64,000 nucleotides of DNA from a virus. A program made the position numbers and the translations under genes. The notes under the pieces are model-generated. The model had not been told where the DNA came from and ran no database searches. It saw only the letters and a list, made by a program, of their open reading frames with translations. This document shows, in pieces, positions 11 through 63,997 of this stretch. Positions within the stretch are counted from its first letter, which is position 1. Every line of letters begins with the position of its first letter. The stretch spans positions 1-64,000 of IMG/VR virus record IMGVR_UViG_3300005098_000017; one strand, 5' to 3'.

Positions 11-601
11 ATGGTAACACCATTTGTATATCATTATATTAGAACAGACACAACAGAGACGCTTATTAATATTTGTACCAATGGTTCTAATGATGTGATT
101 GTCAATGTTTATGGAGACGCTGTTTATTATGAAGCCCGCGCCTATCCATTTTTTAATGTTTTAAGAGATCATGCTCTCTTTCCCATAACATCATCATGGA
201 TTGAGTGGGTTAGTAGGAAGTTGATGCATAAGGATTCAATAAATGTTAGTGATTTTTTAGAGATTTATTTTACATCAGAAGCTATGGGACGTCTTGTTTT
301 GCCAGAAGAATATAAGTATGCGTTAATTTATACTGATAGCATAAATTATGGTTATGGACCGCCACGCTGCCCTGTCGTAGATGAATGTTATATTGATTAT
401 GGTTATCTATTTAGATGGGGTAAAAATAGTTATTTAAGCGGCTGGCTTACATATTTTAATCCTTACAAAATGTCTGGTATAAAGGATACTACAATTAAAG
501 AAGGCGTGTATTGGTTTACGACAAGGAGAAAAACAGATGGCAGAAACTCATTTCACAAGGGTTACATTCATCCTACTATTCCTTGGTCTTTCTATCATTA
601 A
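11..601 (+). CDS. hypothetical protein (may extend 5' beyond the window)
   Basis: 196-aa ORF; frame open to the window edge; overlaps the next + gene. Confidence 0.6.
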   Translation: MVTPFVYHYIRTDTTETLINICTNGSNDVIVNVYGDAVYYEARAYPFFNVLRDHALFPITSSWIEWVSRKLMHKDSINVSDFLEIYFTSEAMGRLVLPEEYKYALIYTDSINYGYGPPRCPVVDECYIDYGYLFRWGKNSYLSGWLTYFNPYKMSGIKDTTIKEGVYWFTTRRKTDGRNSFHKGYIHPTIPWSFYH

Positions 602-1025
602 TGCTCAATGTGTTCAGCAGGTTAATGCTGTTTCCAGAAGCGACGGTTTCCCTGATATATTACTATATATCAATGGTCTTTATGACCGCTCATATGCAAT
701 AAAAGTCGAATATGTCATGTGTGATTCTATTGATACCCTTGTCTACCGTGGTAGCGAGGCTTGTTTATTAATTGGTAGTGAGCACATACTTGTTTTTAAC
801 GATATTAACATCGCACATATAAGAGTCCCTGTTTTGCCTGGACATGACTATGATCTATATATATCTGCATTAGGTATAACAACATCGGGAAGTGATACAA
901 CAATAAGATATCACTTTTATTATAAAATAGAAAATGTGGAGGAATGGATATGCAAAGAATTATTAATAGATACGGTAGTTGTCGATACATTAGATACATT
1001 ACCGTCATTACCATCATCGCATTAG
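537..1025 (+). CDS. exported hypothetical protein
   Basis: Signal-peptide-like N-terminus TRVTFILLFLGLSIINA|Q. Confidence 0.65.
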   Translation: MAETHFTRVTFILLFLGLSIINAQCVQQVNAVSRSDGFPDILLYINGLYDRSYAIKVEYVMCDSIDTLVYRGSEACLLIGSEHILVFNDINIAHIRVPVLPGHDYDLYISALGITTSGSDTTIRYHFYYKIENVEEWICKELLIDTVVVDTLDTLPSLPSSH

Positions 1026-3484
1026 TTGGCCTTTTATCAGCTGATCCCATTATATGTGGGACAGAGTCTAATAGTAAGTATGAAGATGTTGATAGCATGG
1101 ATCTGATCTACATTATTAAGGGGGATACAAATCATGCACAGATAGGACGATGTGAGGATTCATATTTTAAGGCTATTTATTCGAAGGCTTTTTATCTAGT
1201 AACTGATACAGGTTGTGTCCCTGTTCAGAGTGCTGGAGGCTCGCCTCTTGAGTGTGATAGTTGCAAACTTTTCTCTACCTTCTGGAATATGTTCATCCAT
1301 ACCAATGGTGAGACATTATATGCGGAGCAACCGCATTTCAGGGAAAGCGATGATGGAGACACATTTATCTTTTATGATGCCTATTCTCCATTATCGCCGG
1401 GGAATAGAATGCTATGGATAAACGTTGAGGACATCTCACCTGATACGATAAGGATTAGTACTGACCAGAATAATAAAATTCTTAGTATTGGTAAGTTTAA
1501 AGAATTATTATTGTGTGATTCATCTCTTGGAGCAACTAATTTAAGAGTTGATACAATTTTGTCATGTAATGATAATCTGGTAATAAGCCCGCCGGTTCTT
1601 TTTATGGATTCTACAACACTTGTAAATGGTGATATACACTGGAACGAATTGGATTCTATCGTCCAGTATCGTATTGATGAATCTCTTGATAGCATCGGTA
1701 TTAGATATTTATGGATGTCTGGTGGTGAGCAATGCACACTTGATCTGATGATCAAGAACACCCCTATATTGTTCCAGTTCCTAAACAGTTACATCAATGT
1801 TGTTGTAGGTGATAGCGAGATGACCCCTAAAGATTTTGCCGAAGATTTTTGTCCTATCGAATGTACCAGTGCTCATCATTATAATGCTTGCCTTGCAGAT
1901 ACCGATACATTGATAATCTTTAGAATTGACCCGGGGGCTGCTGGCACAACGGCTGTCGATCAGATTATTGTGCACTATGAAGCCGACACCCTCTTCTCGC
2001 ATGATACAACCGATGATACATTAATCCTTAATGATGGTACTACAGAGCATATTTATGTACCTGTACCAACAGCAGGTAATGTTGGTTATGATTTGGTTGT
2101 TGGTGATACATGTGACTGGGGCAATCCTATAGGATTGCATTCAGGTGGTGGCAGCACGGATACATTGATATTTAGAGTAGGGCGCGGGCTTCGTGTCTAT
2201 AACGATAGGTTAGAATTATATTTGGATACAGAGAACCCCGGCTTAGAATTTAATGCTACTGAGGATGCATGTACTCTCTATACATTAAGGGTGGCTAATA
2301 TTGATTCAACACACATAGCAGATAGTTCTATATCATGGGTTGATCTCAGCATCGCTGTAATGGAGAGCATAAGGGCAGGTAGATTGCGTGTATTGTGGGA
2401 CCCAACCAATCAGGCATCTAGTTGTACTGACAATTTGACTGATACGGTCTCTCATGTAAGGACAGTAAGATTGATACCTCCCATACAAGCTCAATCAATA
2501 GGTGATACTGGTATATGTATCTATTTGGATTCAGTTGCTATAGGTCAGGCATGTGGGTGTAATGCTATGGTACCTCTCTATAAGGAAGGAAGAGCTATAG
2601 GATTACATGCAGATACATCACTCTTCACTGTTAGTGGCGGTTATTTAACATTGAAGCATCCTTTCATCTCTAAAGTATTTTTCAATTACAAATCAACATC
2701 CTGTGTTGATACAGGTGATAGCAGTCCCAAGGGATCGAAGAAGTATGATTATTTGGTTATTAATGTTGAGGAACCATTAGTTGCAGTAGGCAGCACCCCT
2801 GTTGATACCCTTGATACAACAAAGATACAACTTTCACTAGCATATGATGAAGATCTATTTACCATTGACACAACGGCACCTGATACATGCCAGCTTACTA
2901 TAAGGGATAGGAGCATAACATGGAGATATATTGACACAAGTGTTGCTGATACCATATGTAATCGTTGTGGAGGCGGCGCTTCACTCTCTGGATGGGATAC
3001 AATACAGATGTTTCCTCAGTATAGCAATTGTATTGTTCTTAACAGTACATCGTCTGATGGTGTGTTAGATGTAATGATTGATCCTGATAACGACATGAAT
3101 ATGCCTGTTTATAGGTGGCGATCTAACTATAATAGCTCCTTCCAGACGATTATTTTACATGTAGTACAACCATTGATTGCAACAGACTCAACATTGGATA
3201 CGATTAAGATATTGTTCAGGTATAGGAGGCCGAGCGCTCATGCAGATATAAAACTTGACTATAGGCTATTGGATAGTACACGCAGTACAATAGCTAGTGG
3301 TTCTAATATTACAATTGTAGGATCTCCATCCCCTACAGGACCACCGGTAACATATACATACAAAATAACATGTGATGATATAAACATAACAAGATACATC
3401 CAACTTGACATAAAGATGAGGAGCAAATATGGTGCGCCGATTTATCTGGGTGACATTAGTATTATTTATAAGCGCCGCTATTAA
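944..3484 (+). CDS. exported fibre/spike-like protein
   Basis: Signal peptide ..ITIIALVGLLSA|D; beta-spiral-like segments (VGRGLRVYNDRLEL, NPGLEF, LFTVSGGYLTLK, LFTID..QLTI); Cys-rich; many D-S/T motifs. Confidence 0.6.
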   Translation: MDMQRIINRYGSCRYIRYITVITIIALVGLLSADPIICGTESNSKYEDVDSMDLIYIIKGDTNHAQIGRCEDSYFKAIYSKAFYLVTDTGCVPVQSAGGSPLECDSCKLFSTFWNMFIHTNGETLYAEQPHFRESDDGDTFIFYDAYSPLSPGNRMLWINVEDISPDTIRISTDQNNKILSIGKFKELLLCDSSLGATNLRVDTILSCNDNLVISPPVLFMDSTTLVNGDIHWNELDSIVQYRIDESLDSIGIRYLWMSGGEQCTLDLMIKNTPILFQFLNSYINVVVGDSEMTPKDFAEDFCPIECTSAHHYNACLADTDTLIIFRIDPGAAGTTAVDQIIVHYEADTLFSHDTTDDTLILNDGTTEHIYVPVPTAGNVGYDLVVGDTCDWGNPIGLHSGGGSTDTLIFRVGRGLRVYNDRLELYLDTENPGLEFNATEDACTLYTLRVANIDSTHIADSSISWVDLSIAVMESIRAGRLRVLWDPTNQASSCTDNLTDTVSHVRTVRLIPPIQAQSIGDTGICIYLDSVAIGQACGCNAMVPLYKEGRAIGLHADTSLFTVSGGYLTLKHPFISKVFFNYKSTSCVDTGDSSPKGSKKYDYLVINVEEPLVAVGSTPVDTLDTTKIQLSLAYDEDLFTIDTTAPDTCQLTIRDRSITWRYIDTSVADTICNRCGGGASLSGWDTIQMFPQYSNCIVLNSTSSDGVLDVMIDPDNDMNMPVYRWRSNYNSSFQTIILHVVQPLIATDSTLDTIKILFRYRRPSAHADIKLDYRLLDSTRSTIASGSNITIVGSPSPTGPPVTYTYKITCDDINITRYIQLDIKMRSKYGAPIYLGDISIIYKRRY

Positions 3485-6400
3485 TGCTTATCCTGTTACA
3501 GCAGTTAATAGTCTTCCTGATAGCTTTACTACATCTTTAAGGATTATTGATATCGAAGGCCGGCCTATTAAGGTTTCCTCTGTTGATACGATTGTTATTG
3601 AGACATTTTATGATACTATTAACACGCATGACACAATTTTATTTCTTACATCATATACGAGCATTTTCCAGTTTGTTGAGTGGATCAAATATTATAGTGG
3701 AAATTATTATGTGAGGTTGAAGCCCGGCTTCGGTAGTAAAGGGACAAGTACTGATTCAATAAGAGGGCCGTGGCCTCCAGTTATGCATGAGATTTATCAG
3801 GGGGATACATTATACTTGTATACCCGTATTTACTTACATATAAGGTGGGCACCATTTGAACATGCGTGGAATGATCAATTAAGTTACATACGACTATTAT
3901 ACATATGGAATTCAACAGCAAGCAAGTATGTCCTCCACAAGATATCTACAGTGCAATTCGATCCAATTACCATTGGAAGGACAAATAGACATGAACTTTA
4001 TAAAGAGGGATTGTTTTGGGGGCTTAACCTACGCAAGATTTACTTTCATTGTGATACATCAACGACTGATACAATATGCTACTTGCATTACCCCATTGAT
4101 CTAGAACTTATCCATAAGCGATTACCAACATATGATCGTTATTTCATCTTAAATAGTCTTAATATGTGTCGCTTTGTTGCTGATAGTGATAGCTCAGCAT
4201 CAAAAGCATCTCCCATAAAACACATAATAAACGCGGGCTTCATTGACGACATAGCATCAATTATCTCGCCAGATACATCATTAGATGGTATAGGTTATAT
4301 TAGCGATATTAGTACACATCAAGATACATATGTAATTGTTATAAATGGTATAACAAAGAGGAAATATCGTTTCTCTGGCATAACAGAAAGTGATTCACTT
4401 GATCCTATTGATTCTGTTGTTGTTTGCAAAGGTTATGGTGTTTCTGATAGCGTATTATATTTCCGTGCTCATAATGATACAGCTGTTGTTGTTCTTAAGG
4501 CGCTGGCTTCTGATTCTTTTTATATTGCACTTTGTGCAATTGTCAAGGTTGACACAACCATTGATAGCTCAAGGCATTTGACTTATATTGATTACTTACC
4601 AGTCGGGATTTTTAAGATCCCACGTCGAACAAGTGGCGGCGGTTTAATAACAAGATTCATATCATGTGATCACTCGGACTTTCATATCATGCAGCCCGGA
4701 TTAATGCCGATCATTTATGATACTCTGTCAGAGATGCCCGATACAATAGGCGCGCCTCTCTTCAGATGGGTTGCTCTTACAAAAGGGATTATAACACATA
4801 ATGATTCAACTAAGCTAGTAGCCATTGCCATAATTAAGGACACAGTGCTTGTGTGGGATGTAACGAATGATACAACCATTATGTTTGGTTTACCTATCAG
4901 TGTGGATACGACATACTATTATACTGAAATAGCATCCCAACCATATGATACATCCCTAATCGTATTCCTCCTTGATAATGATGATGAATTATTGTATATC
5001 CTTACCATCGACTATGATCTTTCATGGGATACTACAAGCATTCATTTACCATACTTAGGTCAAAGGAAATTTGTTTTTGCAACAACCTGTATTGATACAG
5101 GACCTTATTATGAGTATCCTATAGGGTGTAACTGTGATACATCTGATACAGTATGCGATTCACTAAAATGGGATTACGAACTTATAGAACCTATAACAAA
5201 ATATTCCTATCATACCGTTTACCCGCTCGTATATGATAAAAAAGGCAAGTATTATACATTACTTAACTTAAATGATTCAATCGATGTCAGATCTGATTCT
5301 GTGATATATTTCTGGTCCATGACAATAAGGGATCTCATAGAAGATGCCTTTGATAGCCTTCAATGGATCGATGTTAAACCAACATTAGCCGGTAGATCTA
5401 ATTTGCTCCATCAGCCTTTCATTTATTACAAACTTCCTGGTTCATGGCATTGGGATATAAGAGGTGGCACATATGGACCTGCCGTCGGTTGGAATAATAG
5501 TTCTGTTTATCATGAATTAAACTGTCGCTATGCGTACCTCTTATCACCGATACGTAACAACTTATCAGATGGGCGGCTTCGATATTGTTTGAAGGCATAC
5601 CGTAATTATCCTTTGCGTTTGGGATTTGTTTATACAGATCCCAGTGGTATTTCAAATCCATCAGGGGTATATCCATGTGTTTATAGAATAAGTTTAAAGG
5701 GGAAATATTTCTCTAGTACTCGTATGTCAAGTTCATGGTATTGGGCACACAGAACCTATCCGCGTTATTCATATGACTTCCAGATAGAGGTAGACCCCGG
5801 TACAGTGCCTGAAATGATTATAGGTACATGGACATATACATTTACAGAAAATACTACATATGTTGAGACATATACTGACACGATTTTTGTACGAAATCAG
5901 ATTAACCATACAGGTACTAGATATTACATAGAAGGATTTGATTTTGCTAATATTGATAGTCTATTTCTTGTTAATTGGTGGGAGCATGGCTATCCATGGT
6001 ATTCAACACTCCAATTTGACTTTTATTTTATTGATTATACACCGCCGCGAAGTGGTGCTAGCATTACTGTTCTTGGGTATCTTGATAAACACCAAGCCGA
6101 CACATTATTTAAAAATGATAGCATCTGTGGTAGATGCATCGATACACTAAATCCTTACTATATCAATGTAGTGCATAGAACAGCTAGTGGATTAATATCA
6201 TTGACTAACGGGTTTATAGGCTTGATTATGGACAGAGAATTTGATTTCCGCAATGATGGATGGTTACAGGGGATACCTACATATTATTGGGATAAAAATG
6301 CTGAAACATGGCATCCAACTGGCGTTGATAGCCATATTATTGATCTTCACATTTATTATGGAAGGCCGGGCTTCATCGATGCAACACCTAACTGTGTAGT

Positions 6401-6512: not shown

Positions 6513-7374
6513 TGAACTTGGCAAGCGATTTATTATTAACGATGCTATCGAATGTAGCCTCGCCAGCAATGCGTCTTAATAAAGCATTTATCTTTACTAA
6601 CATCTTACGAGGGGTTTTATCGTAGCCAAGAAGCCGCGCGGCTTCCATGCTTACAAACATATTATCCACCAAATCATAAGCAATCTTTATCCCTTCTGTA
6701 GGTCGATCCTGTGTGTAAACATTGATAATATCAATATGTAATGAAGCCACGCTCGAAACCTTTTCGACCTTATATAGCGATTTAATCATCGTCTTTCTAA
6801 AATCCCCTCCGGGGCTGTCCTTCTTAACCTTCTTCGCCAGTTTCCTGCTCCAAGCGATATTAGAAACAAAGACAAATGGGATGCGACTGCTCAACCACCT
6901 GTAAAGACCCATCATGAATCTAGAGAAGCCCGCCCTATCGAATGCCTGTGGTGGCATATTAAATTCGTTTTCCGATATCAAAGCCGCTGCATTCAGAATA
7001 AAAACACCAACAAGTGCATCATAACCCGCAACAGCATCATAGATTTCCTTTTCGATGCTTTGTTTAAATGAATTCTGAAGAATTGTTATATTCCTCTTAA
7101 TCCTATCGGGTAAGGATTGTAATAACTTACTGTCAGATGTATGTCTTATAGGATCGATTATTAAAACAGGGAAGGATGATGCCAATGTTGTTGCATAATG
7201 GAGTATAAGATCTTCACAATGTGAATTAGGATACATTAGAAATTCATGGATGCCTATGGAAGGAAGAAAGATCCGATCAAGCTCTATTATGCCTGATGCA
7301 ATGAAAGGATTGTCGTTATTATATATCCTTTCCTCTTCTATGAGCTTTCTCACATCAAAATAATCAAGCTTCAT
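6496..7374 (-). CDS. RecA/RadA-fold protein with degenerate Walker A
   Basis: IASGIIELDRIF..IHEF matches the RecA N-terminal pattern; YPNSHCE occupies the GxxxxGKT position; VLIID strand follows. Confidence 0.55.
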   Translation of the reverse strand: MKLDYFDVRKLIEEERIYNNDNPFIASGIIELDRIFLPSIGIHEFLMYPNSHCEDLILHYATTLASSFPVLIIDPIRHTSDSKLLQSLPDRIKRNITILQNSFKQSIEKEIYDAVAGYDALVGVFILNAAALISENEFNMPPQAFDRAGFSRFMMGLYRWLSSRIPFVFVSNIAWSRKLAKKVKKDSPGGDFRKTMIKSLYKVEKVSSVASLHIDIINVYTQDRPTEGIKIAYDLVDNMFVSMEAARLLGYDKTPRKMLVKINALLRRIAGEATFDSIVNNKSLAKFITAGA

Positions 7375-9635
7375 ACTAATGCTCCCTCCTTTATATTGAA
7401 TCCAAACTTCTCCAGTAATTTAGATAATTTATCGGAATAATACTCATATGCAAGATCAATTTTATCCTTCCAATTCGGATCGTACTCTCTATCGACAAGA
7501 TGGTAATGTCTATTTTTATTTACGACATATTCAACCTTCGTGCCGTGTGTTATCTCACTTATCCCATGTCGTTCCATAAGCTGGCGGGCGAGGCGGGCTT
7601 CAACACTATTCTTATTCTTGTACTCATCAGGATGACTCTTTGATATCGATGTAGACATAATAAATTTTTCCACAGGAAACTTTGTAAGATCAAGATACTT
7701 ATGCAATAATGATTGATCCTCACCATAGAATATGACGCGAACAATATCCCATAAACACTCCTTATAGATAGGTGGCTGCTTCGGTGATGCTAAAGCCGAT
7801 CCCTTAAAGATAATGGTATCACCGTCCTTGAGAACATAACTCTTCATAGCTATTGAATACATGGCATCATATTCCTCTTGCTCCATGAATGTTGTGATGT
7901 TTTCTTTATCAATGCCATACTTCTCATGTATATAAGCCGCTACGGCTTCATTTATCTCATTTACATCAACATAATCCGATATATAAACACCATCAGTATC
8001 ATATTCTATGACACTATCTCCAAGCTTATTAATAACGAAACTTATAACATCACGGCAGAAGCCAACTACTGCAATAGCAATGGAAAGATCACCTACCTTG
8101 GAATTTTTGTTTCCATGTATCCCATAGATTGAGTTCATAACAACCTTACGCGCAACCTGAGCTGCTTGTGTCGCTTTATACTCAGGACTATCCTTTTTTA
8201 ACTTTGATAACTTTTTCTTAAGCGTTTTCCTATCGTTGTACATCTCCTTAAGGACAAGACGGTAAATGCTATCAGATGATTGATCTATCTCAACAACAAT
8301 CGTTTTATCAAGATTATCGTCAGGTACCTCTATGATTAAGGATGTATCCTTCCAGTACGCATTAATATTATCTTGGTAATCCTTAACCTCAATAATCTTT
8401 GTTGTATCAGGACCAGCATTTAGTGTTATGAGTGAGTTAGGATAGAAGGAGCTGAAATCGATTTTGTATACAGGTTTGAAGTAACCTTTCTTCTTGACAC
8501 CGATAAGCGCGCCTTGATATTTATTCCATATCTTCTTTGTATTAAATGATGCTATGCGTCCATCCAATCCATATTTCTGTGCATTGGAAAGAAGCCCGAT
8601 AACCTTTTTCTTAAATAAGCCGCGCAGCGTTACGATACGTGGTATAAAGGCAGGATATGAATTCATAATAGCATCAAGAGGTACCTGCATGTATTCAGCT
8701 AGTGCAATAATGTTATCAATGTAACGCATAGCAAGTTGATATGTTAAAATAATGTCATTCTGATGGTATCTTTCTAATTCCTTCGTGCCCACCCATTCAC
8801 TCATGTTCATATGTGGAAGGCGGATGGCTTCATATCCAAAATATTCACCTACCGTCTCCAGCTTTTTATTCTGTAATTTTCCCAGTAGTGATTGATCTTT
8901 GTCAACTGATTCCCATACATCATAATGGAGGAAGCCGCGCGGCTTAATCTCTATTGACGATCCTTCCTGTGTTGCAAGGAATAGACGCTCGAATTCATCT
9001 ATAAGGTCCAATCTTACACATCTTTCATAAATGTAACGCAGATCGAAGTGCTTGGAATAATAACCTGCTAAAACAGTAGGTTTCACCTCTGCAATAGTCC
9101 TAAGAAACCACAGTAATAGTTCCCTTTCCTCCTGTTCTGTGCCTGATGTATATCTTGCTAATAGCCGTTCTCCATCGTAGATACCCAATGCAATAATAGG
9201 GTCTGTATCGTAATTGGCAAATTCGCCTGCATGGCTAAGAACCTCGATATCGAATGATGCTACCCGTACGGTTGATTTACAGTTGAAAAGATGTGGTGCA
9301 AACACATAGAGTGCTTCGTTTGCAGCGAGGTGGAAGTATGGAAGCCGCCCGTTTTTTAAGCGATGCACCTTGCGTCGGAGGTAATTGCGGTCAATTTTGT
9401 TAATGGGAAAACCACATACATCTTCATCAACTCTTCTCGATGCAAAGACACAAATTGAAGCCGGCTCCAATGTTCCAATAACCCTGAAGCGTGTAAGCTC
9501 ATAACGCTGCGAGAATGATGGAACAAAAAGTAGCTCCCCTACCGGTAGTTTAATGTACTTACCATCCTTATAATCTGTGAGAAGGAAGCCTCGCCCTTTT
9601 GCGAAGTATAGCTTAAGTGGTACCGCTATTTGCAT
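7371..9635 (-). CDS. polB: family B DNA polymerase
   Basis: ExoI SFDIE, ExoII YSKHFD, ExoIII YHQND; Pol motifs DFSSFYP, KVVMNSIYG, YDTDG. Confidence 0.97.
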   Translation of the reverse strand: MQIAVPLKLYFAKGRGFLLTDYKDGKYIKLPVGELLFVPSFSQRYELTRFRVIGTLEPASICVFASRRVDEDVCGFPINKIDRNYLRRKVHRLKNGRLPYFHLAANEALYVFAPHLFNCKSTVRVASFDIEVLSHAGEFANYDTDPIIALGIYDGERLLARYTSGTEQEERELLLWFLRTIAEVKPTVLAGYYSKHFDLRYIYERCVRLDLIDEFERLFLATQEGSSIEIKPRGFLHYDVWESVDKDQSLLGKLQNKKLETVGEYFGYEAIRLPHMNMSEWVGTKELERYHQNDIILTYQLAMRYIDNIIALAEYMQVPLDAIMNSYPAFIPRIVTLRGLFKKKVIGLLSNAQKYGLDGRIASFNTKKIWNKYQGALIGVKKKGYFKPVYKIDFSSFYPNSLITLNAGPDTTKIIEVKDYQDNINAYWKDTSLIIEVPDDNLDKTIVVEIDQSSDSIYRLVLKEMYNDRKTLKKKLSKLKKDSPEYKATQAAQVARKVVMNSIYGIHGNKNSKVGDLSIAIAVVGFCRDVISFVINKLGDSVIEYDTDGVYISDYVDVNEINEAVAAYIHEKYGIDKENITTFMEQEEYDAMYSIAMKSYVLKDGDTIIFKGSALASPKQPPIYKECLWDIVRVIFYGEDQSLLHKYLDLTKFPVEKFIMSTSISKSHPDEYKNKNSVEARLARQLMERHGISEITHGTKVEYVVNKNRHYHLVDREYDPNWKDKIDLAYEYYSDKLSKLLEKFGFNIKEGALV

Positions 9636-9709: not shown

Positions 9710-10363
9710 TTACATAATACCAAATGATAGTTCTCTTAAATACTCAATCCCCGTTGCTAGATTATCAAATCTTACATCAATCATTTCATCGATGAATGGA
9801 TGCATATGCTTATCATCTGTTATAACAGCCACTATATGCTTTCGTTGATTGTATGCCCATGCAAGCTCACATATGCATCCTATTGATATATCACTTGTGA
9901 AACCATCTTCGATGATAGCGAATAATATATCCGATTGTGAGATCATCCAGAAGTCGCGCCTCATATGATACTTCATTGAAAGAGCTACCTTGTCAGATCT
10001 TAATCTGATATAAGTATGATTATCTTTACCAACGGGTTGACCCGGAATAGCTGCCTCCTTTAACAGAATAGGTAGGAAAACTTTTAAGCCCGCCGATCTT
10101 AATTCATCAGCTATTGACGATAACCTGTGTTTCACTACATCCCAAGGAAGCCCTGTTATTGGATGCGAAATATAAACAGATAGCTGACGAGTTGCAAATG
10201 TTGGACTTGTATTAACAGTTGCGGGCAATGAGTCATTAATGCCATATGTTGAACCCGTGTTATCCATGTGTTTCCAACATTCCTCTTTACATGGCATCTC
10301 GTAAGGGTAATTAGGGATTATCTGAGGCCAACCGTCTTTTTCAGGATGTTTGCACATTCTCAC
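9710..10363 (-). CDS. nucleoside 2-deoxyribosyltransferase-family protein
   Basis: VYISHP, RDFWMISQSDIL, SIGCICELAWAY. Confidence 0.8.
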   Translation of the reverse strand: MRMCKHPEKDGWPQIIPNYPYEMPCKEECWKHMDNTGSTYGINDSLPATVNTSPTFATRQLSVYISHPITGLPWDVVKHRLSSIADELRSAGLKVFLPILLKEAAIPGQPVGKDNHTYIRLRSDKVALSMKYHMRRDFWMISQSDILFAIIEDGFTSDISIGCICELAWAYNQRKHIVAVITDDKHMHPFIDEMIDVRFDNLATGIEYLRELSFGIM

Positions 10364-10785: not shown

Positions 10786-11364
10786 TTAACAACACAAAGA
10801 TTTTATATATCTGAATTCCTTTGCATAAATATATATTAAAGCTCCATCTCTCAGAGCATTTTTCAAATCAATGAAGCACCACTGCTTATCACCTACATTA
10901 ATAAATCCATTACCACATATAAAATTACCACATTTAGGACACTTATTCACCAAGTATTGCACCTCCAATATCTCTTCTGGTGTTGCAGAATACTTTTGGT
11001 ATATAGGAATATAACAAGGCTCTATTTTATAAAAAACAAATGGTGATGCGATAAGATGTGGTGGTACAAAGTCAATATCTTCAATTGAGGCTGGCGCTTC
11101 AGAACCATCAAACGCATTAGTAGTTAATAAATAGATGTTAACTCCACCCATATTAAGAAAGGTGATCATATTATCAAAGAATTTATCATAATCAAAGTTA
11201 ACAGCAGATTCTATTATCCTGTTAACATTAGATGATATAGGCTTCAACTTTAGTTTTCTTGTATCCTTACTTTCAGAAAATATAATGTAGTAATACATAT
11301 TAATGTCTTTCATTCTTTTGAAATATCGAAACAACTCTGAATCGATGATTAGTTGAGCGCACAA
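10786..11364 (-). CDS. hypothetical protein with C-terminal CxxC (paralog of 13976..14677)
   Basis: KCPKCG..GFINVGDKQWCFIDLKNAL..G.LIY resembles ECPKCH..GLFKIGKEVWCIYDLQDAI..GDFIF; true start may be 11298. Confidence 0.6.
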   Translation of the reverse strand: MCAQLIIDSELFRYFKRMKDINMYYYIIFSESKDTRKLKLKPISSNVNRIIESAVNFDYDKFFDNMITFLNMGGVNIYLLTTNAFDGSEAPASIEDIDFVPPHLIASPFVFYKIEPCYIPIYQKYSATPEEILEVQYLVNKCPKCGNFICGNGFINVGDKQWCFIDLKNALRDGALIYIYAKEFRYIKSLCC

Positions 11365-11890
11365 TACCTATCGTACCAACCAATTTGTACATATCTTTCC
11401 TATACATAGGAAGGATCTGATCAAGCCAACATAGGAAGCCACCGGGTTTCAACACAAACCACGCCTCCTTAACAACTTTGTTTCTATTTATCATAGGTGT
11501 GCCATAGTGTTCAGCATCCTCAGCTGTATACGGTGGATCGGCAAGAATCAAATCGAATTTTTCTGGCGGAAAGTACATAGATAATTCATGGGCATCACCC
11601 ACTATGTCTGGAAATAAATCAGGATTGATATCAAATGTTGTTTCGCGTTCATAATTCCATGTACCCTTCTCCACCTTCCCAGAAAACAGATGTAATATTT
11701 CTTTAGCATCGGGGAAAAGAGCATGGATCCTACGTAAGTACGATGGAGGATATTCGCCATAATATTTTGCCTTAGAACTATAATTGTTGCCAATCATCCA
11801 TATGCCATATAGCCAACCATGCGATACAACAACAGGTGGGTATTTCGGAAATTCTTTGGCATAGTTTTTTGCTCTTTCTTCTAGTGTCAT
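11300..11890 (-). CDS. amino (N6-A/N4-C) DNA methyltransferase
   Basis: Motif I LHLFSG, motif IV LADPPY, VLKPGG; RBS before the ATG at 11890. Confidence 0.8.
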   Translation of the reverse strand: MTLEERAKNYAKEFPKYPPVVVSHGWLYGIWMIGNNYSSKAKYYGEYPPSYLRRIHALFPDAKEILHLFSGKVEKGTWNYERETTFDINPDLFPDIVGDAHELSMYFPPEKFDLILADPPYTAEDAEHYGTPMINRNKVVKEAWFVLKPGGFLCWLDQILPMYRKDMYKLVGTIGIVRSTNHRFRVVSIFQKNERH

Positions 11891-13975
11891 ATTTCTCCTT
11901 TCCATTTTAATTGTATCCACTCACATTTCTCTTCATCGAAATATTTCTTATACTTTAATAGCATGATAACCGCCAATAACAATTGTTCATGTGTTTTAAA
12001 CTGCTTCCAGTATGATGGAGATATAGCTGGATCATAGTCCGTGTATTCGACAGTACTACTTTTGATAACATCGTAAATAAGGTATAACTCATCAACAGGC
12101 GCGGCTTCATTATAAGGATAAATTGTCCTGAATATCTCCATAAGTTGTGCCCATGTAGGCAACCAGACAGGATGACGCGATGACCATGAGTGCCCATTTA
12201 TCGGGGAGATACCAACATAAGCCTCGCCCTCATTACCATCGGGGTAGGTAATATGTTGTGGTTTATCGCTAGTAAGGATCCCATAATAACCCTGCGAACA
12301 CACAACATGATCACCGATGCGCGGCTTCCACCTGTTCTGTATTTCCTTCACATTGCACATCTTATAATACTTATCATTCACTCTCTATCTCCTCCTTCTC
12401 TTTTATAATAAAGCCAATATTATTACCGCTGACAACTAAACCAACAATTTCTTTGGTTTCTTCAACCTTCTTTATGAACTCCTCTATACCGTGGCATCTA
12501 TAATATGCCACAGCATCATATGCTTCACCTTCTTTTGAATTAATAAACCAGTAAACCTTTTCCATTGTTACCTCCTTTCTGTCCATGACAACCGGGCATA
12601 AGCCCATTTCCTTTACCTTGTTACTTCCTTTCCACAGAACCTACATCTATACACATATACCTCCTGTTTATCCCAACCGCCTAATGTGAGAACCTTTTTA
12701 TAGCGGCCGGTAAATTCCTTTCTTTCCCAGTAGTGTATGCACTCGTCAATAGAGTCCTCATCTATTATACGAACGGTACCATCATTTAGCATTGTCTTAG
12801 TAATAAACCAAGGGCGGCCCAACTCATAGCCATCGATTTCATCACTATAAACAACACGCGCCTTTACTTCATCTGTATCTTCATCAATCTTAAAATATTC
12901 GATTCTACCTTTTAATACTTTATTCTTATGCTTAACTTCTACAGGTGTAAGTTCATCAAGACCCGTCTCCTCTTTAAATTCCTTTATCATCTGCTGTTTA
13001 AGCTCTGCTATTGTCACACTACACCTCCTTTTCTTCTTTGTTGATATCAAACAATTTCTCCAATGAGTATTTTTTCAAGATATTATTTACCATTTCCAAA
13101 AATCCAATGGTCAATCCTATCATTCCACTAATAGCTCTTGCTATGAACCAACAAGCTAATCCCAAGCCTGATAGTAATAAGATTCCTATCGCAAAATCCA
13201 TCATTTCTCCTTATCGGAAAATGCATGATTTACATCCTCAACCCACGCATGAATAGCTTCCAATGCTTCCTTATATTCCTCATCAGGGATTTCTATATTA
13301 TAACCCAAGCACTCTTTCAGATCATTGATGGTCTTAATATTACACAAAGTATCATAAGTATATAGAACCTGTTGGTCCCTATCATGAACCTTTTTGTGCA
13401 ATATAAATAATAATTGATCATCCTTAGGCAAGCCATCATTCATGCCGTCCCAATAAATGTACCAGTTCGAATAACTCCACCTAAGATATGCCATACTCCT
13501 TTCTCCCTTTAATCTGTATATGGTTCAACAATCTTCACATACCAATGAGAGCACTTGCCGGGCTTCCACTTAGGATGTGCTTGTTTTATCATTTCAGTCG
13601 TTGGTCCTACTGGTTCGCATACCTCCAATCTAGTCTCCCACCAACCTTCAAGTGATTCATTAAAATCCTCTACAAATAACTTAGCTAAAGACTTCACCTC
13701 TTCCTCCGTTAGATCAGGATAGAAAATGGCTCCATCAGTTAACATTCCTTCTGTCCTGCATGTTATATAGGCTTCATAAATCGTATCAGCATAACGCTTA
13801 TTGCTAGTATGAATATCAATTTCTATGATCCTTTTCATTCTTCTTTTCGTCAATGTTCAACAACTTTCTTAATTCCTCTATGGCCTCTTCTGCAAGTCTC
13901 TTCCCAAATAATTCAGGATCCTCTTCGATCTCCAATTCCTCCTCGTCATCAGGAAGGTATTCATTTTTAAACTCT

Positions 13976-14677: not shown

Positions 14678-16489
14678 GTTTACCTCCCTTTGTTAGTAAT
14701 CTCCTATTTCAAGGTAATATGTTTGCCAGCGGTAATTAATGGTGTCATTATAGTCATTAATGAATTTTTTGATGGTGATATTAAGCCCGCCGACTTCACT
14801 TTTATTAACATCTGACACAAATATATACGGTGGATATATAACATTATCCGGTATTGAACCTTGCTTTGAAAAAGCACTAAGCGCGTGCTTAAAATAATTT
14901 CTTGCTACATTCGGTGTAACAATACCACCAGCATCTTCATAAGATGTAGGATGAGCATAATTTATATAGTCATATCCAAAATACATCATCTCCGATTCTA
15001 TCTGTACTCTGTAAGCAAGATCTAATAGAACCATATTTTCATAGAAGATATCCATAAGATAGATAACATCATTCACAAATTTCCCTTTATGATATGTTTC
15101 TATATGATGATCATGTATGTCTGGTGGCAATTCTAGCTCATATCGCCAACCCATAACACCACCAGCTATGATCCTTAATGATGGTAATACAGATTCATCG
15201 ATTAGGTATTCAATTACCTCTTTACCAAAGTTAATATCCTCTATTTTGGGTGGGTAGAAAACAACACATTCTGAGTAGGAAGAAAAAGGACTTTCTTTCA
15301 TTTCAACATCTATGGAATGGGGTTGGATTTCCTCTCCCTCGGATGTAGTAACTGATTCTATAATGAAGTGCCTCTTTTCTTTATTTATAGGAATCATAAT
15401 ATTCATTCACCCTCCTTTGTGTTTTGTTGAAGCATTCTCTTTACATCGCCCAATGTCAAGTTTTCGGAGATCCAGCGCACCTTTTTTCCTTTATTTATTA
15501 AATGAATTATTTCGGTTTTGTCAAGTAGAAGAAGCCGCGGCTTCTTCCCCTTCTCATATAAAATAGCCCAGCGCATACCTTTGCGAAAAAACATTAGCGT
15601 CTCTACCTCCTAAATAGTCTTGCTATTGATAAAGCACGGCTAATCTTTCTTACTGTACTTGGCATATAGTTATAGCGTCCGATATTCGTCAAACCTATAT
15701 TAATAAGCACCGCACCGAAAAATATCAATAAGTAATCGAGAGGTTTTATTTTCATCGAATTATTACTACTTTGCCTGATCTTATAATGAGGCTTATACCT
15801 CCTTAATTCTCCCATTTCTCCTCCTTTTTATAGTTATATCAAGAGTATTAATAAGCCACTCCCTTCAAACTGACATATAACTTCCTATAAATAATTGTAT
15901 ATCATCAGGTAAATTTTCGATCGCATTCCACCGTACATCGGCCGCGCTACCACTTTCGGGCACATAAACAATGTACTTATTATCGACCCATATCTCAGGC
16001 AAGATTTCCTTACCATATGTGAAGTCGGTTGCAAGTCGTTCAACGGCTTCAGGGATTTCACCATTATCAAGATCCTTTGTTAGCTGAGTCTTAACTTCAT
16101 ACATCACAAGGGCAATAAGATCTGAAAAATCGTTCATTGTGCACCTCCTATGATATCAATCTCTTTGATCATATCCTTTTTAATTCTCATATAACCTCTT
16201 GTTGGTTCTCCATTAATACGACCATTTTCAACAATTGCATATGTCAATTTTCGCTCCGGATGTGAATCATATGGCTCAATAACATAATCTTCAAACTCGC
16301 AACATGCGTTTTCCTCAATGGTCTGGACGAGATCATTTGCATCTACTCCACATTCTTTAGTATAATATTCAATGTCTTCGCTACCAGTTTCCACTATAGC
16401 ATATCTAGCTTCCTCTATTATCCATTCAATCTTATCTGTTTCGATTATTGCACCATTATTCAATGTGATTCTAATCATAATTACCTCCT

Positions 16490-36647: not shown

Positions 36648-36730
36648 ATTACCTCCTTTTTGTGATTTGCATATTTTAACACCTTCTTATCAATAATAAT
36701 AAAAACCATAATGACAATGAAGCCGCGGCT

Positions 36731-43703: not shown

Positions 43704-43704
43704 A

Positions 43705-50577: not shown

Positions 50578-52983
50578 TTAATCAAGTTTCCAGAAGTTGA
50601 GCCAGAATTCGCGATCGGCAGTAGCAAGAGGATGAAGACCAACAGGGGTTTTGATTCCAAGAATCCGCGCGAGCTGCCAGTTGCGCTTCTTACCAGTATG
50701 CAGTTCTACAAGAAAGCGTACATGTGCTTCAAGATCAGATTCAGTACCGGCAACAATAGCCAAGAAATCGCTCTCAGCGACAGTAAGAGATTTCCAAGTG
50801 GTAAGAATCGCCTGAGGTTCAAATCTAGCAAGAAGCCTGCGGAAACGCCTGTTTAGCCTCCGGAAGTTCCTAGTAAGAAGTACACGAAGTTCAGATACTT
50901 TACTCGCAAGGAAGCGCCGACGCCTGTCGAGCTCTCTGCGCCGCCTGCCAAGGGTAGCCAGAGCATCAGAAAGGTGATCAAGCCTAGGTAGCAGCCACTT
51001 TTCCATTTTTCGCCTCAGAACTTCGTTTCTGATCCCAGATGCTAGGAACCTGACTTTAGTTTCAGGTCTCGCATTAGCGAAGAGTCTACGGCTCCGATTA
51101 ACTACCGTATCAATCGCCGTTACTTTCTCTGCAAGAGCATTCACTTCATTCTCTATCTTCCGTATTCGAGAGAGCGTCCGTCCGAACATGCGCCTCCTTA
51201 TGCGATCCCACTTGAGGAACAATGCCTTAACTTCTGGATCAATGGTGCCATCAGGAATAAGATCCTTAAGAGACCTAACCTCTGGCTCAGCAAACTCAAC
51301 TTCAGGAATAAATTCAGCAAGAGGACCTGTTGGAGTTATTGCTACTGGATCCGCCTTCGCAGTCCTATTAGCGATCATTTGAGTAACAGTATCAAGCCTG
51401 GCAGTCGTACTCGCGAGTAGATGCAGTCCCGCTTCTACCTCATGACGAAGCTCCGGTTCTTTACCATTAGCAAGATTCACTGCAGCTTGGAGTAGCGCTC
51501 CAGTTCTCGCAACAAGATCCATATTAAGTTCAGTATCAGAAAGAAGCATTCGGGTAAAACCAGCATCAGCTCTCGCAATCATTTCCTTACCCAGCTCAAT
51601 ATTTTCCACTTCGGTACTAGGATCCATTCTCCACTCTCCGAAAGATATCTCCTTTATCCGGCTTCGTACGCTATCGAAGAATTCCTTAGCAACGAGAGGT
51701 TCCTTGAAGACCTTGGATGCCGCGGCGAGAGCCACTTTGTCGCCATCGGCATCCCATCCGCTAGGCATATCTGCAGGGTGTACCAGAATCGCATGCGCAC
51801 GATGGTCAACAATAATAGGAAGGATAAGAGTATCACCAGGCAAGATGGGCGACTTCTGTATGAGTAGGAGTTCTCCATCTTTCAGACCAAGCATCCGTGC
51901 AATCACAGGAGGAATAACAGCAGTGCCGGGATGTGCATTCTGAAATCCCAGATAGAAGCCCGGGCCTAGTCTCAACTTCCGAAGTGCAATCTTTAAGTGG
52001 TCCAGAAGCACTCTCCGCAGGAAGCCTGCCTCCTTTATGAGGCCGAATTTCCGCAGAATATCAGCAGTCAGAGTCAGCACTGCACTAGGTTCATTGATCG
52101 GATCAGCGTTTTTAACAAGGATATCAGCCGCTACCTCAGGATCAGAAAAACCATTAATAGCTTCAGCAATCTGCTCCTGAATCCGTTCAACAAACTCAGG
52201 CGCTGGATTAACATTCCATCCGAGTTTCCTTGGTAGAAGGAACCAGCGCGGCAGAGCTTGGCTGAGACTGATGCCGCCCGCGAATACGGCACCAACCTCA
52301 TGCAGCATGATGGTTCGCCCGAGTTCGAGTACGAAGCGCCGCCTCTTGATGAGTTTTGCGGTGTCAGCATCAGCAACGATATCAGTCCCTGTTTCCAGCT
52401 CCGTGAGGACCTCATCTGCAAGAGCTTCATTTCCAAGATACAACATCAGCCTCTGGAACCCAACTCTGCCGGGAAGAACTGGTACCGCTATCCCTTTCAG
52501 ACCAATAGCAGTCACTTTAAATCCATTCTTCACAAGAGCACGGGTAACCTTAGAAACCTCAGCCTCTGTAGGAGCATATGCTGCTGCCACAAGTTTTGTA
52601 AACCGTTCGCTAACGAAGAAGATCCCATCCACATTCATTTTCATATTGAGCTTGAGACCACGGATGCGAAGATCCATACCAGCCACACGTTCCGGCTTGA
52701 AATCCCAGCCTTTATTCGGAATTTCCGGCGTTGTCATCATCTGGATGCGCTTTCCAGGAAGAGATCTCAGATCAAATTCAGGATCACCGAGAATATTCGC
52801 AATCACTCTATTAACAGTCTCTATAGCAGAAGTAGGAACCACCTTGAAGATCCTACAATCTGGAATCATAGTAGGCTTCATTGGAAGATCAGAGTTCAGA
52901 TCAGGATCAAATGCGAAGAAGACACTAGCACCAGCTTCAGTAAATAACGCTTGCAGAGGAGACCTCGGTATTCTTTCCATCAT
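50578..52983 (-). CDS. single-subunit two-barrel RNA polymerase (YonO/cellular-RdRP-like)
   Basis: VDGIFFVS, GLKGIAV, QKSPIL and catalytic DADGD in the expected order; RBS AAGGAGGTGAT before the ATG at 52983. Confidence 0.75.
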   Translation of the reverse strand: MMERIPRSPLQALFTEAGASVFFAFDPDLNSDLPMKPTMIPDCRIFKVVPTSAIETVNRVIANILGDPEFDLRSLPGKRIQMMTTPEIPNKGWDFKPERVAGMDLRIRGLKLNMKMNVDGIFFVSERFTKLVAAAYAPTEAEVSKVTRALVKNGFKVTAIGLKGIAVPVLPGRVGFQRLMLYLGNEALADEVLTELETGTDIVADADTAKLIKRRRFVLELGRTIMLHEVGAVFAGGISLSQALPRWFLLPRKLGWNVNPAPEFVERIQEQIAEAINGFSDPEVAADILVKNADPINEPSAVLTLTADILRKFGLIKEAGFLRRVLLDHLKIALRKLRLGPGFYLGFQNAHPGTAVIPPVIARMLGLKDGELLLIQKSPILPGDTLILPIIVDHRAHAILVHPADMPSGWDADGDKVALAAASKVFKEPLVAKEFFDSVRSRIKEISFGEWRMDPSTEVENIELGKEMIARADAGFTRMLLSDTELNMDLVARTGALLQAAVNLANGKEPELRHEVEAGLHLLASTTARLDTVTQMIANRTAKADPVAITPTGPLAEFIPEVEFAEPEVRSLKDLIPDGTIDPEVKALFLKWDRIRRRMFGRTLSRIRKIENEVNALAEKVTAIDTVVNRSRRLFANARPETKVRFLASGIRNEVLRRKMEKWLLPRLDHLSDALATLGRRRRELDRRRRFLASKVSELRVLLTRNFRRLNRRFRRLLARFEPQAILTTWKSLTVAESDFLAIVAGTESDLEAHVRFLVELHTGKKRNWQLARILGIKTPVGLHPLATADREFWLNFWKLD

Positions 52984-52996
52984 ATCACCTCCTTTC

Positions 52997-53103
52997 CGCC
53001 GCGGATTTCGTTGCCCTCGGTGCGGCACTCCGAGGGTCGCCGGGCTTCGAGCGTCATTGGTGCCAAGGCTGGCCATAGAATGAAGCCCGGAAATTCTATG
53101 GCC
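52997..53103 (-). ncRNA. two tandem leader pseudoknots of the RNAP gene (53040-53103, 52997-53036)
   Basis: Loop CCGGGCTTC/GAAGCCCGG; loop TGCCGC/GCGGCG abutting the RBS. Confidence 0.6.
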
Positions 53104-58136: not shown

Positions 58137-58528
58137 TTTATCTCCTTATTATTTTTATCGTTGAAATATGTTTTTCTAAATTCCTCTAGGATAGGTTCAT
58201 CACCTGTACCATAGAGGACGGCGTGCATCCATTCAGTTACCTGATCTGCTGTATGGTGTGGAAATACATCCTTCATGCATCCGAAGTATTTTTGCCAGTT
58301 GGTTGGTTTAGGTTTTTTATGTTCTTTTATAGTCCATTTTTTGGTAGCTGTGGCGGATCCGTAGGTTGTGAGGATGAGGCCTATAATTATTATTATTATG
58401 GTGTATGTAGTGGGATTATTGGTGTAGTGGTGGAGGAGGAAGCCGGCCGCAGTGGTAAGTAGGCCCCAGAATCGTTTGCTCCTCCAGAAGGGTTTGGTGT
58501 TATTATTGTTATTATCGTGTGTGTTCAT
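58133..58528 (-). CDS. membrane protein, possibly holin-like
   Basis: KPFWRSKRFWG followed by two TM segments. Confidence 0.55.
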   Translation of the reverse strand: MNTHDNNNNNTKPFWRSKRFWGLLTTAAGFLLHHYTNNPTTYTIIIIIIGLILTTYGSATATKKWTIKEHKKPKPTNWQKYFGCMKDVFPHHTADQVTEWMHAVLYGTGDEPILEEFRKTYFNDKNNKEIK

Positions 58529-59756
58529 TTTGGGTCTCCTTTATGTTATGAAGCCCGCGCTTCAGTATATTAATACTTGCATTATAATCTCTATCGAGGG
58601 TTGCACCACAGAACGGGCATTTATGTATACGATCGTGGAGTGCCTTAGGTACCTTATGTCCACATGAGGAGCATGTCTGCGTAGTATATGCTGGGTTAAC
58701 CTTGATGACTTGTGAGCCGTGAAGCCGCGCCTTGTAGGATGTTAGATTGATAAGTGTGTTCCATCCTGCGTCGTAGATGTATTTAGAGAGGTGAAGCCGG
58801 CGGCGCTTGCTTACAAGATCATGTATTTTTATATCCTCGAATATAATAACATCATAGTTAGTAGCGAGCTGATGTGAGATATGATGGAGGAAGCCGCGCC
58901 GCATGTTAGCTAATCGTTCATGAAGTCTGGCTAGTTTACGCCTCTGTTTCATATAATTAGCACTCCCTCGCTGCTTGCGCGAGAGCTGTTTTTGTACACG
59001 CTTTATACGTTTTTCGAGTTTGGAGATGAAGCGCGGGTTAGATACAATATTACCATCACTTGATACGATGAGATTCGTAAGCCCGAGATCTATACCGATG
59101 ACGCGCTGCTTACTATTAATATCGGTAACGATAGTAGTGTCATTATTATTGGGTACTTCAACTGTTACATATGCATACCATCTACCACTGGGATGTCTCT
59201 TTATAGTAACATTTTTGGCTTTAGTCCATTCGATAGGTCGGTGAAGGCGGATTTTTAAGCCGCCGAGTTTGGGTAAATGAATATATGCGAACTTATCATT
59301 CAGTTTCTCAAATTTAATGACAGGATACCCATCCGGATAGTTTTTATGAGTCATCCAAACTTGTGGATATGTAAGTGATAAGTATTGATCAGGGTTTTTG
59401 GGTTTAGGCGGACTTATATGTCCTTCTTTATTCCTGATGGCTACAAAGAAACGCTTATATGCCCAGTCAATCTTATCAATTATAGCCTTTAAGACACCTG
59501 AATAAACGAGCCTTAAGGCAGGTTCCTCTCTTTTAAATGCGGTTAGGTTACGTTGCCTCTCAAATTTTGTAGGGGTTCTATGTTCTTCATCCCATATACG
59601 TCTGTATTCATTTATTTCGTAATTATAGAACCAGCAGAGGATGGACAGCCAGTTTTCTAGTTTATATTCCTGTAGTGTTGTTGGATAGGCTCTGAATTTG
59701 TAGGTGAGGTAGGAAGCCGCCGCCTTATCAGTATTTTTTGATCCTTGTTTATTCAT
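58512..59756 (-). CDS. tnpB: TnpB (IS200/IS605-family RNA-guided nuclease), solo
   Basis: YKFRAYPT N-terminus; RuvC IGIDLG / FED / DRDYNA; Zn finger CSSC..CPFC; no tnpA in the window. Confidence 0.95.
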   Translation of the reverse strand: MNKQGSKNTDKAAASYLTYKFRAYPTTLQEYKLENWLSILCWFYNYEINEYRRIWDEEHRTPTKFERQRNLTAFKREEPALRLVYSGVLKAIIDKIDWAYKRFFVAIRNKEGHISPPKPKNPDQYLSLTYPQVWMTHKNYPDGYPVIKFEKLNDKFAYIHLPKLGGLKIRLHRPIEWTKAKNVTIKRHPSGRWYAYVTVEVPNNNDTTIVTDINSKQRVIGIDLGLTNLIVSSDGNIVSNPRFISKLEKRIKRVQKQLSRKQRGSANYMKQRRKLARLHERLANMRRGFLHHISHQLATNYDVIIFEDIKIHDLVSKRRRLHLSKYIYDAGWNTLINLTSYKARLHGSQVIKVNPAYTTQTCSSCGHKVPKALHDRIHKCPFCGATLDRDYNASINILKRGLHNIKETQNEHTR

Positions 59757-61511: not shown

Positions 61512-61536
61512 GTCCAAAATGAAGCCGGCAGGACTC

Positions 61537-61647: not shown

Positions 61648-61652
61648 TCTAT

Positions 61653-62803: not shown

Positions 62804-62812
62804 AACAGTCAT

Positions 62813-63316
62813 ATGTGGATAGAAAATAAATATCCATATAAAGATTATAGGGTTTATGGTATCTACGAAACTCATGAAGGGCGTCAGTTTGTTATAGTTA
62901 TATCACCACAAGGTAAGAGAACAACAGTATCATATGCGAAATATCTTATAGAAATTAAATATGGTAGAAAGCTTGCCCCTGATGAAACAGTCCATCATAT
63001 TGATGGAAATCCAAAGAATAATGATTATAGCAATCTACAAGTTATAACAAGGTCAGAGCATGCAAAACGGGATGTACATCGTTTAAAGCCAAAAACTTTC
63101 AGATGCCCTATGTGTGGAAAAACATTTAGTTTATCTGGCAAGAAATTACATGATGCAATACTGAACCGAAAATACGGTCGGGCGGGACCATTCTGTTCTA
63201 AGAAATGTGCTGGTAGATATAGCCGTTTAGTACAACTTAAACGCATATTACCATTACCTGTTAAACGTATTAAAGCTGAATATTACAAACTATCTGAACA
63301 TCCACCATCCAAATAA
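62813..63316 (+). CDS. HNH endonuclease with Zn finger
   Basis: VHHIDGNPKNNDYSNL; CPMC..FCSKKC. Confidence 0.9.
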   Translation: MWIENKYPYKDYRVYGIYETHEGRQFVIVISPQGKRTTVSYAKYLIEIKYGRKLAPDETVHHIDGNPKNNDYSNLQVITRSEHAKRDVHRLKPKTFRCPMCGKTFSLSGKKLHDAILNRKYGRAGPFCSKKCAGRYSRLVQLKRILPLPVKRIKAEYYKLSEHPPSK

Positions 63317-63997
63317 GAGAAAGACTCCAAGAATAACCAATATGAAAATCAATAATCCACCACAAATACAAAATATAATATCTGATACGCCATTAAACGG
63401 TAAAAACCACTGCACATATGGAGGTATAAATAAAAGACAGAGGAAACCAATAAGGCCCGCTAACAAAAGAATGAAGATTAATTTAATAATAGACATTTTG
63501 CATTAACCTTTGTGTCAACTTTTGCGTCAACTACTCACTAGCACGTAATTCACTTGGATATTCCTCCTCCACACGGAATATATCCATGATTGGATACTTA
63601 AGTACTTTCTCTTTCCTCAATAGACAGTAAAACCCTGCTTTCACATATGTCTGTGAGACATTTTCATAAACGATCGGATATGATGTACCTTTTAACCACA
63701 GTACAACCTTCATAAATACCTCCTTCACAATATAAATTGTTTCATAATTACATTCTTTGGTACATGTATAATATAAAGTCCGATACGAGGCTGCCCTATA
63801 GCTATAACTTTCCACCGAGGGAAGCGGGGCTTCTTCTTATATATCTCAACACTACCATGATATGTACTATCCTCCATTATAATAGCTTTATCAGCAGGGA
63901 TCTGAACCAATTGGAAATGATCATTATTTTTCCTATAAGCTATGTAAACCAAATTCCCATTAGTATTACCGGTACCCAAAAGAAACTTACCTTTCAT
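63290..63997 (-). other. three small hypothetical genes (63290..63496 membrane; 63531..63713; 63725..>63997)
   Basis: ORFs with RBS; the last may be truncated by the window edge. Confidence 0.55.

Follow-up and report, generated by a model that had tools for sequence, protein, structure and literature searches.

We analysed the first 64 kb (64,000 nucleotides, hereafter the window) of IMG/VR virus record IMGVR_UViG_3300005098_000017, a 147,433-bp single contig, and found that this phage genome is densely written with a short word, AAGC followed by at least four G or C bases, which occurs 365 times across the record (one copy per ~400 bases), is under purifying selection, and is imposed strongly enough to shift codon usage and to replace amino acids in the encoded proteins. 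The word had been picked out in an original prediction drawn from the letters of the window, which offered either a protein-binding landscape or a mutational drive as its cause. A different reading now ranks first, tentatively: the word may be the initiation site for the phage's own DnaG-type primase-helicase.

Abundance and anatomy of the word

Within the window the half-site AAGC+[GC]≥4 forms a field running from 131 to 63833 on both strands, with 166 copies at 131 separate places (~2.6 per kb), as compared with 14.0 ± 3.7 copies (maximum 23) in 100 dinucleotide-preserving shuffles; a single 8-mer, GCGGCTTC, is present 45 times vs. 0.97 expected under a first-order Markov model. Called genes hold 340 copies, 117 in the sense and 223 in the antisense orientation, whereas protein-preserving shuffles of synonymous codons within genes yielded 25 ± 4 sense and 29 ± 5 antisense copies (~54 in total) and shuffles of codon order yielded 18 and 16 (~34 in total). 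The enrichment claimed in the original prediction is thus real and survives both the dinucleotide and the protein-preserving null; its example sites were all correctly placed (3720, 6631, 15532, 36720, 44544, 37983, 43374, 58551 and 63822), and its tally by eye of about 40 copies in the first 22 kb came to 41 on recount, while the 35% GC that it had assumed must be replaced by the actual 40.6% of the window.

The unit is ~10 nt long and consists of (G/T)AAGC, then C, then a degenerate G/C run. The base preceding AAGC (position −1) is G in 58% and T in 34% of copies (G/T in 92%), and C fills the first position after it (+4) in 75%, whichever way copies face relative to genes; beyond position +4 the bases are G or C with no preference between them. 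The number of G/C bases that follow AAGC is bimodal, with a geometric tail at 0–3, a dip at 3–4, and a separate peak at 5–6 that reaches out to 9. Among 11 prefixes tested, this length peak is specific to AAGC; a milder excess seen for AGGC mostly reflects the opposite ends of these runs, and about half of all G/C runs of at least six bases have the AAGC flank. The most frequent full form is GAAGCCGCGGCT, with 13 copies in the genome, and a typical single half-site lies at 2180..2192 on the minus strand (reading GAAGCCCGCGCCC), where it is conserved in the sister strains L001 and L003 while the flanking silent sites vary.

The original prediction had also set apart, as a feature of its own, the inverted pair in which AAGC and GCTT bracket one G/C run. 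Such double-ended runs number 42 vs. 47 expected if the two ends were independent, and because they occur at this chance rate the inverted pair is no unit; it is two half-sites that share one run by chance. Examples are GAAGCCGCGCGGCTTC at 6630..6645, conserved in four strains, and GAAGCCGCGGCTTC at 15531..15544, which recurs at 36719–36732 and 44543–44556.

As had been claimed, copies stand in both orientations and in different reading frames: all six classes (three frames by two orientations) are occupied. Their position is uniform along genes and near Poisson across genes, with no excess at gene ends, and 93% lie inside genes, the intergenic share being equal to the intergenic fraction of the genome, so that density is the same between and within genes. 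These distributions support a feature of the DNA itself that is independent of the reading frame. There is, however, an orientation bias of about two to one: on the coding strand, run+GCTT outnumbers AAGC+run by 223 to 117, and this bias flips at ~79 kb along with the gene strand, which it mostly tracks. GC skew was considered as the source of the bias and rejected, since the 10–40 kb region has the strongest skew and yet no bias. Avoidance of restriction sites was likewise rejected as a cause of the word, as no strong avoidance of palindromes (AAGCTT, GAATTC and others) was found.

Selection on the word and its cost to proteins

We compared the record with sister strains recovered from other assemblies with the family B DNA polymerase gene as bait (L001 and L003–L008, 90–98% nucleotide identity) and with a deeper relative (L009–L012, 74–83% nucleotide identity). 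Silent G/C sites inside the word change 2–9 times less between strains than those outside it; at four-fold degenerate third positions carrying G or C, in four strain pairs, 17/242 differ inside the word vs. 450/1784 outside. To guard against ascertainment bias, sites were also defined in a third strain, and of the three tests one then gave a 1.7-fold reduction, which by itself falls short of significance, and the others 2.4-fold and 4.5-fold reductions. In close pairs, G/C runs that lack the AAGC flank change as fast as the background. The conserved footprint extends from −1 to +8, and position −1, which lies outside the search pattern, is conserved like the core (observed/expected, O/E, 0.29).

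Gains and losses of sites between relatives are point changes, and a comparison of five strains at 38 site clusters found no indels at the word. This strain has lost sites by C-to-T changes; at 4635..4650 on the plus strand, for instance, a decayed site reads GGCGGCGGTTT here vs. GGCGGCGGCTT in three other strains, and similar decay is seen near 6050 and 11089. At greater distance the sites turn over: a large minus-strand gene with no Pfam hit (50578..53076) has none of 8 sites in common with L009 at 74% nucleotide identity, the differences being mostly silent and lying in pre-adapted peptides (e.g. GGC CCG GGC TTC vs. GGT CCT GGT TTC). The word is therefore kept by purifying selection among close strains and turned over between deeper relatives, and the reduced silent-site change together with the peaked length distribution favours a selected function over neutral drive. 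One further strain difference was seen at the word: ~250 bp of the window (6362–6610) are absent in L006, and the two edges of this deletion lie directly beside the copy at 6364 and 20 nt away from that at 6631. This single anecdote may mean that copies stand at recombination breakpoints.

The cost of the word is clearest in tnpB (58512..59756, minus strand; identified by Pfam), for which about 7 copies had been predicted and exactly 7 were found, all with AAGC on the plus strand (58551, 58722, 58794, 58891, 59029, 59257 and 59714). Relative to Aquificota TnpBs of ~50% identity, the copies coincide with amino acid changes (K to R, K to G, D to G, VM to RL, EETK to AAAS, and one RRR insertion), bearing out the claim that a horizontally acquired gene has been imprinted with the word; six of the seven are codon replacements and one is the three-residue insertion, the GC of the core itself was newly created and not that of the run alone, and some replacements affect alignment columns with next to no variation among 38 homologues. 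Six of the seven sites, which is every comparable one, are kept in L009 at 83% nucleotide identity. Across the proteome, two residues from the set A, P, G and R followed by L or F occur 474 times vs. 329 ± 17 expected (~145 extra peptides), while runs of A, P, G and R as such are not enriched. The word is thus strong enough both to bias codon choice and to replace amino acids.

The relatives of TnpB at ~50% identity are almost all from Aquificota, and judging by these the host is likely a thermophilic member of that phylum. The comparison with host genomes was run on five candidate Aquificota genomes: AAGCSSSSS occurs there at 0.02–0.29 per kb vs. 2.0 per kb in the phage (7–100 times sparser), and no enrichment was seen at the two chromosomal loci that were counted. 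The word is thus no trait of these five genomes and is specific to this phage lineage as far as they show; a distant polymerase relative, L002 (29% GC), has zero copies.

A further suggestion, that the word is tied to the DPPY methyltransferase at 11300, does not hold. That gene (phrog_3816; 11300..11920, minus strand) is accessory and itself has zero copies of the word; it is a strain-variable cassette, and its 582 bp (11316–11897) are present in the record and in the sister strain G001 and cleanly absent from L003 and L004. Because these two strains keep the word at full density (2.7–2.8 per kb) without the gene, the word is not tied to the methyltransferase. Neither a C5-methyltransferase nor a Vsr was found in phage records G000 or G001.

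Candidate functions of the word

We reasoned that the anatomy of the word may reflect how the phage primes its DNA. On the template strand the word reads 5'-[G/C run]-GGCTT-(C/A)-3'. Its TT(C/A) would serve as the trinucleotide that the primase recognises, the middle base being a pyrimidine and the 3' base staying uncopied; the primer would start pppAAGC and extend through the G/C run, giving a primer–template hybrid of 9–10 nt. Such a hybrid would hold at the high temperature of the likely host, whereas a random primer from a 40% GC genome would not, and the degenerate run of variable length would act as a stability element and not as a base-specific recognition element. That the run is defined by composition only, that it has a preferred length, and that it adjoins a fixed core with a conserved position −1 together suggest a signal that depends on base-pair strength and not on a base-reading protein. 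Copies on both strands would fit recombination-driven forks moving in both directions, the phage having a RecA-like recombinase.

A candidate enzyme is encoded in G001, where a 781-aa open reading frame (ORF) has a DNAG_N/DnaG catalytic core, Toprim and DnaB_C domains and resembles the primase-helicase T7 gp4; a Cys/His zinc-finger pattern can be seen by eye at the N-terminus of its translation, and the Pfam DnaG zinc-ribbon model gave no match. In the record itself no primase or helicase families were found, because the record lacks ~35 kb of the genome. The primases of microbes recognise trinucleotides whose middle base is a pyrimidine and whose third (3') base is cryptic (PMC2532735); known sites include 5'-(G/T)(G/T)GTC-3' in T7, CTG in E. 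coli, CTA in Firmicutes and CCC/GCC/CGC in Aquifex aeolicus (PMC2532735, PMC2978363, PMC6136900, PMC12839067). The word is compatible with this rule, and compatibility is all that the match conveys: TT(C/A) has the central pyrimidine, the primer would open with a purine, as pppAA, and the conservation of position −1, outside the search pattern, is as expected of a base that is required but uncopied. Two properties of known enzymes bear on the run, in that A. aeolicus DnaG initiates only on G/C trinucleotides, which its authors read as heat adaptation (PMC2532735), and in that flanking sequence alters both binding and primer length in T7 primase (PMC6136900). With sites of the DnaG and T7 gp4 type, in which flanks matter, the word would thus share a short core around a central pyrimidine, a 3' base left uncopied, and adjoining bases that form the primer; unlike them, it is enriched genome-wide, is ~10 nt long and is imposed on proteins, and in the literature we found no report of a primase site with any of these three properties.

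Several points weigh against priming. The spacing of copies is exponential, i.e. random (coefficient of variation 0.92–1.16), and not regular. Orientation gives no support to a lagging-strand rule: within the minus-strand arm, the embedded genes of the plus strand have a ratio of 10:15, as against ~15:10 under a pure replication rule, and the 6.5–50 kb stretch is nearly free of bias. Minus-strand genes do vary somewhat by region (19:24 at 35–50 kb vs. 42:16 at 50–80 kb, p=0.007, for a contrast picked post hoc). The nearest outside primase-helicases sit in genomes of 61% GC and are uninformative for comparison, the thermophilic host is read solely from the relatives of tnpB, and GC-biased repair beside a nick site can yield the same anatomy of a specific core with an adjacent G/C run. 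Weighing these, we hold it possible, and put it no higher than that, that the genome carries dedicated priming sites throughout, with a primase start signal fused to a primer-stabilising G/C block that rewrites codons and amino acids in every gene, newly acquired ones included. If true, this would be the first case in which the needs of lagging-strand priming visibly shape a proteome, it would show how replication in an AT-rich genome copes with heat, and it would supply a directly testable recognition site for an uncharacterised, potentially useful thermophilic primase-helicase.

Behind priming we place, as rather improbable, a binding site for a double-strand DNA-binding protein of phage or host, which would recognise KAAGCC as its core along with the shape of the run and serve compaction, packaging, protection from defence or global regulation. 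The high and even density, the use of both orientations and a selected footprint of ~10 bp, one helical turn, suit such a protein, as does the nearest described phenomenon, the HIP1 word of cyanobacteria (GCGATCGC), which is 15- to 300-fold over-represented, is conserved between genomes and inferred to be under selection, has no known gene-level function and has been given a proposed role in nucleoid structure (PMC5861425). However, it is rare for base-specific proteins to tolerate any G/C at 4–8 positions in a row, or a run whose length varies; no candidate protein was found, and the two-to-one orientation bias would need a separate cause. The likeness to HIP1 lies in a short GC-rich word that sits in coding DNA in all frames and is conserved beyond neutral expectation; unlike HIP1, a fixed palindromic octamer of cellular genomes that has been tied to cognate methyltransferases (PMC4390886), the present word is asymmetric, ends in a degenerate run of variable length and belongs to a phage in which the sole methyltransferase found is dispensable. 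A repair model proposed for HIP1 (PMC4390886) also lends itself to the idea, which we consider unlikely, that the word is the by-product of a drive, in which an enzyme nicks or starts recombination at a GCTT or TTC core and the neighbouring bases are repaired or converted toward G/C, so that the run is functionless and is merely held against AT-biased mutation. Such a process would leave G/C bases on one side of a fixed core, in a run of varying length without preference for either base; the phage has recombination genes, the C-to-T losses call for a restoring force, and some of the amino acid replacements need two or three base changes per codon (K to R, D to G). On the contrary, run length dips at 3–4 and peaks at 5–6 where a monotonic decay would be expected, the GC of the tnpB core was created along with that of the run, position −1 is conserved as strongly as the core, core-less G/C runs are not conserved in close pairs, and the enzymes looked for (Vsr and a C5-methyltransferase) are missing from G000 and G001, the one methyltransferase present being dispensable. 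Were a drive nevertheless the cause, this would plainly be a case in which GC-biased conversion overrides the conservation of viral proteins.

Less probable still is a Chi-like signal that would stop or redirect a host helicase-nuclease of the AddAB or RecBCD type, or restrict the supply of guides to Argonaute, acting on linear phage DNA. Chi words (GCTGGTGG in E. coli) typically show high density and orientation bias, and the AddAB-type words AGCGG of Bacillus subtilis and GAAGCGG of Staphylococcus aureus resemble the core (PMC8022716); a 1022-aa ORF in one Hydrogenothermaceae genome matches AddA/RecB over its full length, whereas two Aquificaceae genomes show only UvrD-sized matches. Chi words, however, are fixed and are a trait of the host genome, in which they abound; the word has a degenerate run 4–9 bases long with C and not G at +4 in three quarters of copies, it is rare in the candidate hosts, and its preferred strand is opposite to GAAGC on the leading strand if replication is co-directional with transcription. 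DNA uptake sequences, KOPS and other strand-biased architecture words share with it a distributed, selected and frame-independent character, but they are fixed 8–12-mers of cellular chromosomes with strong polarity, toward dif or for uptake, whereas the phage word shows only its two-to-one bias following the gene strand. We regard a role at the level of RNA or protein (hairpins, terminators, long-range pairing, pause sites or a peptide motif) as very improbable: the G-rich version is the more frequent on the transcript, as such a role might have it, but the word uses all frames and both orientations uniformly along genes, complementary partners within 100, 300 and 1000 nt and double-ended sites are at the chance rate, and only 17/365 copies follow a start codon with a ribosome-binding site. 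Long-range pairing and a start-codon or ribosome-site signal were ruled out by the partner counts and by those 17 copies, and intrinsic terminators and REP-like hairpins by the 93% of copies in genes, their uniformity and the lack of any excess of partners. Least credible of all are small mobile GC clusters of the kind inserted in genes in yeast mitochondria or as Rickettsia palindromic elements; there are GC islands in AT-rich DNA, some of them within genes, and one tnpB site does coincide with a three-residue insertion, yet the other six there are codon replacements, relatives differ by point changes with zero indels at the 38 clusters, and neither target duplications nor a constant element sequence accompanies the copies, so that on the timescales covered by these strains this reading is refuted.

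Whichever reading is right, over-represented words such as Chi, uptake sequences, KOPS and HIP1 give rare access to the reading of DNA as a physical molecule. The present one is unusually built, joining a specific pentamer to a block of variable length defined by composition only, and it is viral, with a measurable imprint on proteins. It can also serve as a sequence signature for flagging fragments of this phage lineage in metagenomes from hot environments.

Source record, relatives and neighbouring genes

The whole record has 40.4% GC and an estimated completeness of 84%. It encodes a family B DNA polymerase, a ligase/LigD-type phosphoesterase fusion, TnpB, PhoH, a RecA-like protein, a ribonucleotide reductase, a terminase with an intein and a portal, as well as an RNase H beside the RecA-like and ligase functions; the terminase large subunit gene, with its Hint/intein domain, lies at genome positions 85842–88388 (L016:7842–10388). 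No relative at the DNA level was found among the deposited phages compared, and polymerase identity to them was only 22%. The record is broken and not complete, as G001 bridges both of its ends and shows ~35 kb to be absent: a stretch of G001 (L021–L023, 8276–43641) links genome end 147433 to window position 1. Besides the 781-aa primase-helicase, this stretch holds plus-strand, apparently structural genes, a ClpB-like AAA protein, a ResIII/DEAD helicase and a PD-(D/E)XK nuclease.

In the window, the gene densest in the word is the minus-strand fusion of a ligase with a LigD-type 3'-phosphoesterase (41727..43703; 13 copies, 6.6 per kb). Its 658-aa product joins the phosphoesterase to the OB domain of an ATP-dependent ligase, and the gene lies in the most GC-rich part of the window (50.6% GC). 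Since LigD phosphoesterase trims 3' ribonucleotides, it is possible, by analogy, that the fusion acts in the processing of primers or nicks. The family B DNA polymerase gene (7371..9635, minus strand) has 7 copies by gene tally and is adjoined by a nucleoside 2-deoxyribosyltransferase-like gene (9710–10363, minus strand), a possible hint of base exchange or of modified DNA. Two proteins encoded beside the polymerase gene, of 846 and 1027 aa, gave no family match; from their position they probably extend the structural gene block, and a role in replication seems unlikely.

Among the relatives, L005 (1–2553) matches the window only from 10720 downwards, other genes of higher GC replacing the block of small ORFs upstream of the deoxyribosyltransferase-like gene (NamZ_C and a 576-aa Peptidase_M50/AIRS_C protein); this would be either mosaicism or an assembly chimera. 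A 3-kb contig binned as Thermococci (L049, run SRR6823439) carries a TnpB fragment of 68% identity, and since its run number is near that of the phage contig L008 it is probably a wrongly binned relative of the phage. The series of 100–115-aa ORFs at 16–20.5 kb was too divergent for use in a comparison of paralogues; within it, four adjacent ORFs of 102–115 aa (19128–20489, minus strand) have a common N-terminal motif, M-D-E/G-W-K/N-V-V-K-I-K, and form a small paralogous family. Finally, GC skew on the plus strand is −0.25 to −0.5 from 12000 to 40000, where the coding strand is G-rich, and is weaker beyond 40 kb, where GC climbs to 45–50%.

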